NCBI GenBank assembly: GCA_026209155.1
Contig: GCA_026209155.1_3056.1
Reading direction: 5' to 3' (one strand)
DNA: 64,000 nt
Source: a phage
Position numbers and translations under genes: made by a program
The notes under the pieces: model-generated
Seen by the model: only the letters and a program-made list of their open reading frames with translations
Databases searched by the model: none
What the model was told of the DNA's origin: nothing
Part shown: positions 4,604-10,343 of the stretch, one piece after another
How positions within the stretch are numbered: position 1 is the first letter of the stretch
How the letters are laid out: each line of letters starts with the position of its first letter

Positions 4604-4915
4604 TTACACCGCCATTTTTCCTTTAATAGGAGGGTGTGATTCGTAACCTTTAAGAACGAAATCTTTAGGCCTGAGTTTAAGAACATATTTTAATTGTTCT
4701 TTAGTAGAAAGATAACGGAATTTATAAGGCAATCCGCTTATTACCAGTTCACAAAGCTCTTTAGGTTCACGACGTAAAATTTCTTTACATTGTTCTACGT
4801 GATTCATATAGATATGAGTATTACCGCCAGAAAATATCAAATCTCCAGGAATAAGATTACACATCTTAGCTACAATATGAACTAACGCAGCATATGATGC
4901 AATATTAAATGGAAG
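4604..4915 (-). CDS. td: Thymidylate synthase exon 2 (C-terminal 103 aa, begins LPFNIASY)
   Basis: TS motif LPFNIASYAALVHIVA; the track ATG at 4916-4918 is the last three intron nucleotides, not a real start. Confidence 0.9.
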   Translation of the reverse strand, partial: LPFNIASYAALVHIVAKMCNLIPGDLIFSGGNTHIYMNHVEQCKEILRREPKELCELVISGLPYKFRYLSTKEQLKYVLKLRPKDFVLKGYESHPPIKGKMAV

Positions 4916-5931
4916 CATTATGTTCAGATAAGGTCGTTAATCTTACCCCGGAATTATATCCAGCTGCATGTCACCATGCAGATCAGACTATATCTCCAAC
5001 TTGTTAAAGCAAGTTGTCTATCGTTTCGAGTCACTTGACCCTACTCCCCAAAGGGATAGTCGTTAGGCATTTATGTAGAACCAATTCCATTTATCAGATT
5101 TTACACGATAAGTAACTAATCCAGACGAAATTTTAAAATGTCTAGCTGCATCTGCTGCACAATCAAAAATAACCCCATCACATGAAATCTTTTTAATATT
5201 ACTAGGCTTTTTACCTTTCATCTTTTCTGATATTTTAGATTTAGTTATGTCTGAATGCTTATGATTAAAGAATGAATTATTTTCACCTGAACGATTTCTG
5301 CATTTACTACAAGTATAAGCAGAAGTTTGTATGCGAACACCGCACTTACAAAACTTATGGGTTTCTGGATTCCAACGCCCGTTTTTACTTCCGGGTTTAC
5401 TGTAAAGAGCTTTCCGACCATCAGGTCCAAGTTTAAGCATCTTAGCTTTAACAGTTTCAGAACGTTTCTTAATAATTTCTTCTTTTAATGGATGCGTAGA
5501 ACATGTATCACCAAACGTTGCATCAGCAATATTGTATCCATTAATTTTAGAATTAAGCTCTTTAATCCAAAAATTTTCTCGTTCAATAATCAAATCTTTC
5601 TCATATGGAATTTCTTCCAAAATAGAACATTCAAACACATTACCATGTTTGTTAAAAGACCTCTGAAGCTTTATAGAAGAATGGCATCCTTTTTCTAAAT
5701 CTTTAAAATGCCTCTTCCATCTCTTTTCAAAATCTTTAGCACTTCCTACATATACTTTATTGTTTAAAGTATTTTTAATCTGATAAATTCCGCTTTTCAT
5801 AAATACCTCTTTAAATATAGAAGTATTTATTAAAGGGCAGTCCTACAATTTAGCACGGGATTGTCTACTAGAGAGGTTCCCCGTTTAGATAGATTACAAG
5901 TATAAGTCACCTTATACTCAGGCCTCAATTA
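4916..5931 (-). mobile_element. Group I self-splicing intron in td (1016 nt) carrying the I-TevI gene
   Basis: Exon 1 ends ...CTTGGGT; intron begins TAATTGAGGCCTGAGTATAAGG (minus strand), ends ...AATG before exon 2 CTTCCATTTAAT; matches remembered T4 td intron ends and length. Confidence 0.9.
5063..5800 (-). CDS. Intron-encoded GIY-YIG homing endonuclease I-TevI (245 aa)
   Basis: N-terminal GIYQIKNTLNNKVYVGSAKDFEKRWKRH GIY-YIG motif; NUMOD3-like and Zn-finger region (CKCGVRIQTSAYTCSKC); lies inside the td intron. Confidence 0.92.
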   Translation of the reverse strand: MKSGIYQIKNTLNNKVYVGSAKDFEKRWKRHFKDLEKGCHSSIKLQRSFNKHGNVFECSILEEIPYEKDLIIERENFWIKELNSKINGYNIADATFGDTCSTHPLKEEIIKKRSETVKAKMLKLGPDGRKALYSKPGSKNGRWNPETHKFCKCGVRIQTSAYTCSKCRNRSGENNSFFNHKHSDITKSKISEKMKGKKPSNIKKISCDGVIFDCAADAARHFKISSGLVTYRVKSDKWNWFYINA

Positions 5932-6480
5932 ACCCAAGAAAACATCTACTGATCGTTGATACCACTGCAAATCCAAATAGCCATTACGCACATTAAACTG
6001 ATAGAACATATGACAAGGCGGTAATGCCATTTGCTTGAGTTCAGCTGGATTCCATGCTGAAACAACTTGACGTCTATCATTTGGCAGTTTTTTAATACGA
6101 TCAATAACTTCTACAATTTGGTCTACACCGCCAAAATCACGCCATTGTTTTCCATAAATTGGACCAAGTTCACCGCTATGGTATCCTAAATCTTTTGCTT
6201 GATTTTCGTAATTTTCATCCCAGACTGTTTTGCCTTGAATTAATGAATCATGCTGAATTAATCGTAAATCATTTACGTTAGTACTTCCTGACAAAAACCA
6301 TATTAGCTCAGCAATACAAGCTTTCCAGGCGAGCTTCTTAGTCGTTACTGCAGGAAAACCTTTAGTTAAATCCCAGCGTAATTTAGTACCGAACAAAGCA
6401 ATTGTTCCTGTGCCTGTTCGGTCATCGGTTTCATAGCCATTTTCAAAAATGTCTTTAATTAAATCTTGGTATTGTTTCAT
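5932..6480 (-). CDS. td: Thymidylate synthase exon 1 (N-terminal 183 aa, ends DVFLG)
   Basis: TS motifs (RTGTGT, active-site region PPCH); in-frame TAA is the first intron codon. Confidence 0.9.
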
Positions 6481-6525
6481 TTAGTACCTTATATAAATTA
6501 TAATACATTTTATGAAGCTAAATAA

Positions 6526-6885
6526 TCAATACGGTTTAGCATCAAATTTTCTTTCAATTTCAGGCGTGAAATACAATTCTTTACCGCGTTTGGAAAAGCG
6601 ACCAATAATATGATAATTATTCTCATCAAACGTAATATTGCCAATATCCATAGCTTTCAACCAAATATCGATATTTCTATCCAGTTTTATATCAAAATTC
6701 CAATACGGAGAACTATTACCGAAAATACTGCAAGCGGATTCAGTGAAACAACTACTATAAATCTTGTCTTTAGGAACTACTAATTGATAGACGCCTTTAA
6801 TAAACTGAGGACCCTGCCATTTTGGTTGTTTCGCGTCTTTTTCTAATAGAATAGGGTAATAATTAAAATTCATATTTTCCGCCAC
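6526..6885 (-). CDS. Hypothetical protein, 119 aa, between frd and td
   Basis: ORF in the frd-td interval; I remember frd and td as directly overlapping in T4, so likely an insertion. Confidence 0.5.
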   Translation of the reverse strand: MAENMNFNYYPILLEKDAKQPKWQGPQFIKGVYQLVVPKDKIYSSCFTESACSIFGNSSPYWNFDIKLDRNIDIWLKAMDIGNITFDENNYHIIGRFSKRGKELYFTPEIERKFDAKPY

Positions 6886-6893
6886 GTGTTATT

Positions 6894-7720
<827 letters not shown>

Positions 7721-7731
7721 ATCATCTCCAA

Positions 7732-8064
7732 TTAAAAAGGATCAGGAACGTATCCGCTAGCTTTAATCATTTTAATTAACGTTAACATTCCTTTGTTAAC
7801 TGCTCGTGAGATTTCATCAAAAGCTTCAGGATTAAAAAGTTCTAACACGCCCTTCTGAACTTTTAATTTACAGCCAACAATTTCTTCATCGCCTATAGTA
7901 AATTCATTACCACCAATTCCTCCGAAAAACTTAATTACACCAGTTAACTGTCTTCCACGAGAATATGGGTCGTGTGATAAATTAATATGAGTCACCCCGG
8001 GTACAGTTTTAAATTGGCAGCGAATGTTTACTTGGGAAATTCCAGTTACATGAATATCAGACAT
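7732..8064 (-). CDS. Hypothetical protein (frd.x-like)
   Basis: 110-aa ORF in same-strand array. Confidence 0.5.
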   Translation of the reverse strand: MSDIHVTGISQVNIRCQFKTVPGVTHINLSHDPYSRGRQLTGVIKFFGGIGGNEFTIGDEEIVGCKLKVQKGVLELFNPEAFDEISRAVNKGMLTLIKMIKASGYVPDPF

Positions 8065-8074
8065 AATATTTTCC

Positions 8075-8374
8075 TCAAACAGACTTTTTCACAATTTTCC
8101 AATCAGCTTTAAACTGTTCAACGTCAGAATGGTAAATCCAGAATCCTGCGCTTTCTCCATCCTCATAAAGAGGGCATCCATCACATTCATCTTCCCATCC
8201 CATATCACGCAAAAGACGTTCAGCTTTTTCAACAAGTTCAGAATCTTTACCAATAATATTAAAATACCATTTACCTCTAACTTCTGAATCTTTGATACTC
8301 TGACGTTGTAATCTCATTTTATTCTCCTTAGTTGATAAGGCTATAGTATCACTACCATAGCCTGTTGTAAACAA
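8075..8374 (-). CDS. Hypothetical protein (frd.x-like)
   Basis: 99-aa ORF. Confidence 0.5.
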   Translation of the reverse strand: MFTTGYGSDTIALSTKENKMRLQRQSIKDSEVRGKWYFNIIGKDSELVEKAERLLRDMGWEDECDGCPLYEDGESAGFWIYHSDVEQFKADWKIVKKSV

Positions 8375-8668
8375 TTATTTTTGAATTTTATCGAGCCACT
8401 TACCAAGCTTAATCATTTCTTTAGTAGCCTTTTCCATACTTCTGAACTTAACCAATAGAGGATAGGTATCGACACCCATAACTAAACTGGTTACAAGACT
8501 GTGTTCACCCACAAGCCATAACGAATACGTTTGAATATCGAGCCCGTAATTTCTGTCTTTGTGGACCCGTACACCCATCACTTCAAATTTCTCACTAGCT
8601 TTTTCTACCGCATCCAGGAAATCATCTTTAGTCATATTAGGCCTTAAAAGTTTTTCGCAAAAGTTCAA
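8375..8668 (-). CDS. Hypothetical protein (frd.x-like)
   Basis: 97-aa ORF abutting previous ORF. Confidence 0.5.
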   Translation of the reverse strand: MNFCEKLLRPNMTKDDFLDAVEKASEKFEVMGVRVHKDRNYGLDIQTYSLWLVGEHSLVTSLVMGVDTYPLLVKFRSMEKATKEMIKLGKWLDKIQK

Positions 8669-9017
8669 TGATTTCGTCTACATTGTTTTCATCTACAATG
8701 CAGTGAATTTTTGTTACGCCAGAAACCTTGTCTTTGACTTCATCTTTTTCAGAAGTCGGTTCTTTATACTCACGAAAACAATGAAATTCGTCTTCGCAAA
8801 TTTCTAAAAGTCTATCTTTGAGGTAAAAATGCTTTCCATTTGCGCATTCAATGTGTTTTACTGCTTTATATCCGTTAGCGACGGAAACTTCTTTAACTTC
8901 AAACCATCCGCCATTATCTCGAATGGCTTTAACTATTGATGAATTAGAACGTGGGCTATAATTAATAAATGTATCAATAAGTCTTGGAACAAGTTCATAC
9001 TTTTTACCAGTATACAT
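8637..9017 (-). CDS. Hypothetical protein (frd.x-like)
   Basis: 126-aa ORF. Confidence 0.5.
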   Translation of the reverse strand: MYTGKKYELVPRLIDTFINYSPRSNSSIVKAIRDNGGWFEVKEVSVANGYKAVKHIECANGKHFYLKDRLLEICEDEFHCFREYKEPTSEKDEVKDKVSGVTKIHCIVDENNVDEIIELLRKTFKA

Positions 9018-9061: not shown

Positions 9062-9292
9062 TTATTGTTCAATCAGTCCCATGTAAAATTCTGCGTCTTC
9101 AGAATCCATGCCATCACAATATTCATTAGCCATAAAGCGGGTGAGGTCTTCAAGAGGACCTTCAATGACAATAGAAAAATTGCAATAATTGGGATCATCG
9201 TGAATACTTGTGATGCTAAGTTCAGGATAACGATTACGAATAATTTCTTCGATATATTTAAAATCAACGATGTCAATATCAACTTTAGCCAT
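9062..9292 (-). CDS. Hypothetical small acidic protein, first gene after an early promoter
   Basis: 76-aa ORF directly downstream of promoter element at about 9325-9370. Confidence 0.5.
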
Positions 9293-9437: not shown

Positions 9438-10343
9438 TTAAAGGTCATTCAAAAGGTCATCCAGGTCCGTGTCATCAGCACTAGATGAACTGCCAGAGCT
9501 TGAGCTCATAAAATCATCTTCAGTTTTTGTATTGAAGTCATCAACATTGAATGCATCCAAATCATCAGCAACTTTATCGGCTTTCTTAGCAGCCGTTGCC
9601 GCAGCACCACCCATAATAGCAGTTCCCATAACTTGACTGAACTTAGTGCTCAGTTCTTCAAACGATTTGAACTTATCTTTAGAAGTCATTTCAGAAAGGT
9701 CAACCATTTGTTCGAACAGTTCTTTCTGGAAAGATTTATCGTCAATGTTTGGAATCGCAGATTGATTCAGGAATTTAGATTCATCGTAGTTACTAAATCC
9801 AGAAACCTGTTTAACTTTCAGTACAAAGTTAGCACCTTCCCACGGACAAGTTACATCAACCGGAGTTTCACCCATTTCAACATCAACTGCAATCATCGCG
9901 TTGATTTTATCCCAGATTTTCTTACCGAAACGGTATTTAAATACTTTACCTTCGTTTTCTGGAGCAGCTGGGTCTTTTACTACAAGAATGTTAGCCCAGT
10001 AAGAAGTTTTACGTTTAACAAGACTGTACTCTTTATTGTCAGTGTTGTACAGATCATTTTTACTGATGTATTGACATACTGGGCAAGAATCATAATCACC
10101 ATGGGTAGATGAACATGTTTCAATATACCATTTACCATTTTTCTTGAAACCGTGATTTACAAGAATTGCGAATGGTGCTTGTTCATCATTTTTAGACGGA
10201 AGAAAACGAATTACTGCTTGACCGTTACCCGCATTATCGAGTTTCAGTTTCCACTCGCCTTTATCTTCAGAAGAAAAACCTTTATTGCCATTCAGTTTAG
10301 CCATTTGTGCAGCAAGTTCAGCAGTAGATTTACGTTTAAACAT
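9438..10343 (-). CDS. 32: Single-stranded DNA-binding protein gp32
   Basis: 301 aa, same length as T4 gp32; Zn-binding region [12 protein letters not shown]; acidic C-terminal tail. Confidence 0.95.

Follow-up and report, generated by a model that had tools for sequence, protein, structure and literature searches.

T4-like genomes contain plastic regions in which small accessory ORFs come and go amid conserved core genes. The interval between the genes for dihydrofolate reductase (frd) and thymidylate synthase (td) resembles such regions in that close relatives carry different small ORFs between the same two conserved genes, although its occupant, unlike typical plastic-region ORFs, is unusually stable and stays in one position, beside one neighbour, from genus to genus. 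In T4 itself (NC_000866), frd (145109-145690) and td (from 145112) share a 4-bp ATGA overlap with no ORF between them, just as the first-pass annotation of the DNA studied here had stated. That annotation, made on a stretch of 64,000 nucleotides of phage DNA (GenBank assembly GCA_026209155.1, contig GCA_026209155.1_3056.1; the whole stretch is called the window below), had drawn attention to an ORF between frd and td and had described it as consistent with a gene cassette inserted into the nucleotide-metabolism operon. The genes flanking the T4 junction are 95-97% identical in DNA to those of the window, and the window has 417 extra bases, consisting of the gene and a 45-nt promoter-like spacer. 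By the comparisons described here, the T4 junction is the rarer and apparently reduced form.

The closest described protein is T6 AXN58269/RB32ORF229c, which is the same 115-aa protein in the same position between frd and td, and in phage Ozark the translation of the full 119-codon ORF is identical to that of the window. No feature of the window protein sets it apart from PHROG 1928, a family without a Pfam entry or a solved structure. In terms of predicted fold, the closest structural comparison is with the OB-fold domains of SSB, RPA, S1, cold-shock, HIN and RecO N-domain type, which bind nucleic acids or ligands; the face formed by beta2-beta3, L12 and L45 serves to bind ssDNA, RNA, an oligosaccharide or a partner protein. 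Hundreds of T-even genomes already carry the gene under the annotation of hypothetical protein. Nothing about the protein was found in literature searches covering the ORF, its PHROG, the interval from frd to td and the accessory genes of Tequatrovirus, and a text search of the review PMC2993671 yielded nothing on the frd-td slot.

Results

The window is a segment of a Tequatrovirus (T-even) genome. The 1.6-kb stretch around the ORF shares 97-98% DNA identity with phages including SCS4, T6 and ECML-134, and the identities of frd and td follow from this match to annotated T6, ECML-134 and related phages. All listed genes from gene 32 to td exon 2 lie on the minus strand:

9438-10343, minus strand: gene 32
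9062-9292, minus strand: frd.3
8637-9017, minus strand: frd.2
8075-8317, minus strand: DUF5417/frd.1 gene
7732-8064, minus strand: DUF7247 gene
7475-7720, minus strand: 81-aa ORF, its stop overlapping the frd start
6894-7475, minus strand: frd (dihydrofolate reductase), 193 aa, upstream neighbour of the ORF, 98% amino acid identity to T6 Frd
6526-6885, minus strand: ORF under study in its longest form, GTG start, 119 aa, from the ORF listing
6874-6885, minus strand: four extra codons if GTG 6885 is used; probably untranslated, as most homologs and the GenBank annotations begin at the ATG
6878-6883, minus strand: putative Shine-Dalgarno-like GGCGGA, read from the sequence, 4 nt upstream of ATG 6873
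6526-6873, minus strand: CDS of the 115-aa protein, a PHROG 1928 member, stop TGA at 6526-6528; equivalent of T6 AXN58269/RB32ORF229c
6481-6525, minus strand: AT-rich 45-nt spacer from the ORF to td, 16% GC, with promoter-like motifs
5929-6480, minus strand: td exon 1 (thymidylate synthase), ATG at 6480; the listed ORF extends a few codons into the intron
5063-5800, minus strand: I-TevI within the td intron
4604-4918, minus strand: td exon 2

The ORF listing agrees with the first-pass annotation in placing the ORF between frd and td on the same strand, with coordinates that are exact for the longest ORF, and the composition is as ordinary as had been described, at 32% GC against a window mean of 35%. 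From the frd stop it is 8 nt to the GTG and 20 nt to ATG 6873, and 45 nt lie between the ORF stop (6526-6528) and the td ATG. Translation likely starts at ATG 6873 to give a product of 115 aa, because GGCGGA lies upstream of it, because the CDS annotated in T6 and Lutter is 348 nt long and begins at the equivalent ATG, and because the alignment of most homologs begins at this methionine (MNFNYY). The length of 119 aa given at first is therefore right for the longest ORF (GTG) but probably four codons too long for the protein. The GGCGGA element supplies, by sequence, a putative ribosome-binding site for the ORF.

Between the window and T6, the ORF differs by 10 synonymous and no non-synonymous changes. 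Against JQD51 there are 32 synonymous and 10 non-synonymous differences (dN/dS 0.045), and against an uncultured relative of 63% identity dN/dS is 0.13. This depletion of non-synonymous changes, together with tblastn matches in 555 phage records, indicates that the ORF is more than a chance reading frame. As judged from these substitution patterns, it is a real gene under strong purifying selection, and it is a genuine early-region gene for a protein predicted to be soluble and of about 13 kDa.

The dN/dS of frd against JQD51 (0.54, ungapped) was discarded as unreliable, since an indel and a terminal read-through affect the frd of JQD51. This frd (L016:406-1023) encodes 205 aa, is 12 codons longer, ends in GGKYEF and overlaps the start of the gene of the window's type (A, see below); its greater length appears to stem from a one-base difference near the usual stop. 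In the window, a 97-aa ORF (8375-8668, minus strand, TTG start as listed) lies between frd.2 and the DUF5417/frd.1 gene; it has no Pfam match, and T6 has just a 139-nt gap at the equivalent place. The sole Rfam match in the region, sub-threshold and on the opposite strand, was to a Drosophila lncRNA family and was taken as chance.

The ORF protein matches phrog_1928 with an E-value of 9.5e-36, its residues 8-115 aligning to positions 2-125 of the 126-position profile. It has no match in Pfam, NCBIfam or PADLOC at E <= 1, and the Pfam result in particular bears out the earlier remark that the ORF contains no recognisable motif. Of the records matched by tblastn, 363 reach at least 90% identity and 192 lie below 60%. 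Searched exhaustively with a profile, 1.84 billion representative proteins gave 43 matches at E <= 0.001, two of which, P0038 (899 aa) and P0053 (742 aa), are false positives with scores inflated by internal repeats; the remaining matches are proteins of 95-140 aa. In an alignment of 44 sequences (window numbering), W19, G91, K95 and G97 are invariant, G27, Y29, F93 and F102 almost invariant, and Q16, G78, N79 and P104 frequent; the window protein carries all of the core residues W19, G27, Y29, G91, F93, K95, G97 and F102. On the basis of these searches, PHROG 1928 is a small family confined to T4-like phages. When the window and the T4 region were searched in six frames with the profile, no second copy turned up beside this ORF.

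Several candidate assignments were rejected. The labels 'dihydrofolate reductase' and 'reductase' of a few GenBank records do not fit a protein in which Pfam finds no DHFR_1 domain, the true frd being the neighbouring gene, and 'putative homing endonuclease', the label in one record, does not fit one with no GIY-YIG, HNH, LAGLIDADG or related nuclease motif in Pfam or NCBIfam (E <= 1). A search of the PDB with sequence profiles of the family gave chance matches only: a match to TagH at E 0.0013 with 15 sequences involved the Walker-B region of an ABC ATPase and fell to E 0.089 with 44 sequences. A protein of 195 aa (P0015; L020:2501-3088, OR941409.1) joins an unrelated N-terminal part to the last ~45 residues of a Klebsiella-phage homolog; its source record, 100 kb long, has duplicated, split and rearranged genes, which likely reflects an assembly problem or a rearranged genome.

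All of the roughly 28 loci inspected have their PHROG 1928 members between frd and td; they comprise 13 loci and 15 of 15 IMG/VR loci, a few of the latter duplicating GenBank phages. Among the 13 are Klebsiella Mineola (Jiaodavirus), Enterobacter Q7622 and Edwardsiella PEi26 (Kanagawavirus), Erwinia FBB1 (Roskildevirus), Citrobacter CF1 (Moonvirus), Providencia PSTRCR_127 and seven uncultured contigs, and the inspected loci span at least five named genera in addition to uncultured phages. In nearly all of them the member is the first gene after frd, and the start of the gene often overlaps the frd stop, which suggests translational coupling. Many lineages carry tandem paralogs, each matching phrog_1928: A, the short type represented in the window, and B, a longer type with a PTIxxY insertion. 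Both occur in 8 of the 15 IMG/VR loci, and the window has A only. Across the outgroups, identity to the window is 33-63% for the A protein, 45-50% for Frd and 77-86% for Td. Since the divergence of A tracks that of Frd, vertical co-inheritance rather than a recent import is indicated, and PHROG 1928 is shown, at the level of sequence comparison, to have long resided between frd and td and to have been inherited vertically.

Within Tequatrovirus the slot is found in three states. The window gene (A) occupies it in 363 records, and an unrelated 68-aa gene (C, PHROG 9550), joined to frd via an ATGA overlap, in 135 records, both counted at identities of at least 90%. The empty, T4-type junction is the rare state, with 32 records; among them are T4 strains, RB55, RB59, vB_EcoM_112, HY03, SG1 and G28, and also F1, JEP6, FN, FL12, FL18 and G2133. 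That the ORF is lacking in T4 yet conserved elsewhere is thus confirmed, with no homolog at the T4 site and matches in 555 phage records. The slot does vary among close relatives (A, C or empty), but insertion as the event behind the variation is not supported. In one uncultured relative (L014), A, B and C stand in a row before td, its C being 81% identical to the Tequatrovirus C. The simplest reading of these arrangements is a richer ancestral interval, of which different lineages would have kept different subsets. Two genes upstream of frd, the DUF7247 gene and the 81-aa ORF, are present in the window, in T6 and in uncultured outgroups and are likewise missing from T4, which thus appears reduced on both sides of frd.

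The C gene was seen in UTI-E4 (L011:2599-2805), PYPS2T (L012:2596-2802) and the uncultured relative (L014:4670-4879), and some records label it 'flagellar biosynthesis protein'. Unrelated Phapecoctavirus phages carry it too, at about 43% identity, so that it looks more mobile than A.

A repeat search revealed two direct repeat copies at the borders of the interval, with 13/15 identity and a spacing of 417:

6886-6900: left direct repeat, at the frd stop, read on the minus strand as TAAATGAAATAACAC, with the exact 9-mer TAAATGAAA at 6892-6900
6469-6483: right direct repeat, at the td start, read on the minus strand as TAAATGAAACAATAC, with the exact 9-mer TAAATGAAA at 6475-6483

Removing one repeat copy and the 408 nt between the copies reproduces the T4 junction exactly: the T4 sequence TATATAAATGAAACAATACC equals the two flanks of the window, left and right, joined through a single repeat.

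The spacer that precedes td in the window contains several promoter-like motifs. A consensus scan (9/12) found a sigma-70-like pair, with a -35-like TTGATT at 6529-6524, overlapping the ORF stop, and after 18 nt a TATTAT at 6505-6500; a better -10-like TATAAT stands two bases further, at 6502-6497. A MotA-box-like TTTAGCTTCA at 6522-6513 is one base off the consensus. In phage Lutter, annotators marked a promoter at the homologous site. If these motifs are functional, phages carrying the gene would have a td-proximal promoter that is impossible in T4.

AlphaFold2 predicted the same order of elements from 15 sequences (pLDDT 78) and from 44 sequences (pLDDT 92.3, pTM 0.84), with strands at 6-12, 27-34 and 62-64, a helix at 68-76 and strands at 80-82, 86-96 and 99-104. 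As far as secondary-structure order goes, this matches the beta1-beta2-beta3-helix-beta4-beta5 arrangement of the OB-fold. From the model, the protein probably forms an OB-like five-stranded beta-barrel with the helix between strands 3 and 4; its membership of the OB superfamily is not established. A Foldseek search against viral predicted structures matched only uncharacterised proteins of T4-like phages (Pectobacterium PM2, Serratia Muldoon and Erwinia Cronus, and more weakly Aeromonas Ah1 and phiAS5), and the predicted barrel may be a fold without a solved relative.

Discussion

The explanation that we favour overall, with somewhat more confidence than doubt, is that the ORF is a conserved frd-td gene of T4-like phages, deleted in T4, that would encode an OB-like binder co-expressed with DHFR. 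The opposite direction of change, implied when the ORF was likened to an inserted cassette, would be a recent insertion at an overlap of frd and td like that of T4, which would make the flanking repeat a target-site duplication. Such an event would account for the direct repeat around the ORF (9 bp exact, 13/15 overall), for the three alleles in the slot and for the resemblance of the left repeat to a decayed td start (ATGAAATAACAC vs ATGAAACAATAC), and the repeat alone gives no direction, since an insertion with duplication would look alike. The direction is instead indicated by synteny across genera, by the matching divergence and by how seldom the slot is empty: in every other genus examined the slot holds homologs, which diverge as frd does, whereas the empty junction is the minority state, at 32 against 363 records. 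Among the features expected of a mobile cassette, the direct repeat is present but a mobility gene is absent; neither a transposase nor a nuclease motif was found with the ORF, and no terminal inverted repeat was convincing, as the only 'terminal' inverted pair is an AT-rich 18-mer with 78% complementarity. Moreover, TAAATGAAA combines a stop codon, a start codon and a Lys codon, and this strand of the window has 5 copies of it where 1.3 would be expected, so that two copies at adjacent gene borders are unremarkable. Loss in T4 is more parsimonious because the empty junction is rare and equals a deletion between the 9-bp repeats. A recent insertion is, in our estimation, improbable, and the ATGA overlap of T4 frd and td very probably arose via deletion between the two TAAATGAAA repeats, in what would have been a microhomology-mediated event.

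What the protein does can be stated with far less assurance. In the reading that we put forward tentatively, and which we hold to be rather less likely than its opposite, it would be a dispensable OB-like binding or adaptor protein made together with DHFR, whose OB binding face would hold single-stranded nucleic acid or a partner protein of nucleotide synthesis or replication. Putative residues of this face, placed from secondary-structure order only, would be Q16, W19, K/H26, Y29, K95 and G97. PHROG 1928 proteins are hydrophilic and mildly basic, with a median pI of 8.6 and a net charge of about +2, and so mild a charge is not typical of strong nucleic-acid binders. A bolder version, which we consider improbable, would make PHROG 1928 a so far unrecognised partner of the phage pair of DHFR and thymidylate synthase, acting as an OB-like adaptor or an A/B heterodimer that links the dNTP enzymes to DNA or replication proteins; if true, it would have been missed for decades because the model phage T4 deleted the gene. 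Conserved order is, however, common for small ORFs of T4-like phages, so adjacency to frd need not mean shared function. On this view the product could be a small, early accessory protein of host takeover or anti-defence, directed at a host factor, with its place beside frd being merely inherited gene order. Presence and absence among near-identical phages, the unrelated small gene that alternatively holds the slot, the dispensability evident from T4, the lack of a tie to any known enzyme family and the fast-diverging tandem paralogs, which are common in arms-race genes, all fit this possibility. The fixed position with vertical-looking inheritance in at least five genera and the strong purifying selection speak against it, as counter-defence genes are usually patchier and more mobile, in the way that C, by contrast, reaches into Phapecoctavirus; we regard such a host-directed or anti-defence role as unlikely, though as the main rival of the tentative binder. 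That the ORF is not a gene at all, being a chance frame or a mis-annotated piece of DHFR or of a homing endonuclease, has a negligible probability. The reading could appeal to the labels in some GenBank records, but the protein has no DHFR, GIY-YIG or HNH match in Pfam, non-synonymous changes are strongly depleted, the fold is predicted with confidence and conservation of the family extends to about 20% identity; the Pfam search, the dN/dS values and the fold prediction already refute it.

With deletion in T4 as the preferred account, the frd/td overlap of T4 appears derived and reduced, and T4 would be unrepresentative of its relatives at this locus; the region upstream of frd follows the same pattern of reduction in T4. 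The ORF is among the few small ORFs of unknown function that keep one neighbour (frd) across distant genera, and the combination of a confident predicted fold with no solved relative makes its product a reasonable target for further study.

The td gene of JQD51 is intronless. In a distant uncultured relative, SRR23468750_7313 (L018:3567-5443), td is split as well and its two parts are separated by a GIY-YIG I-TevI-like gene, which indicates that the td intron and its endonuclease are not confined to the T4 genus.
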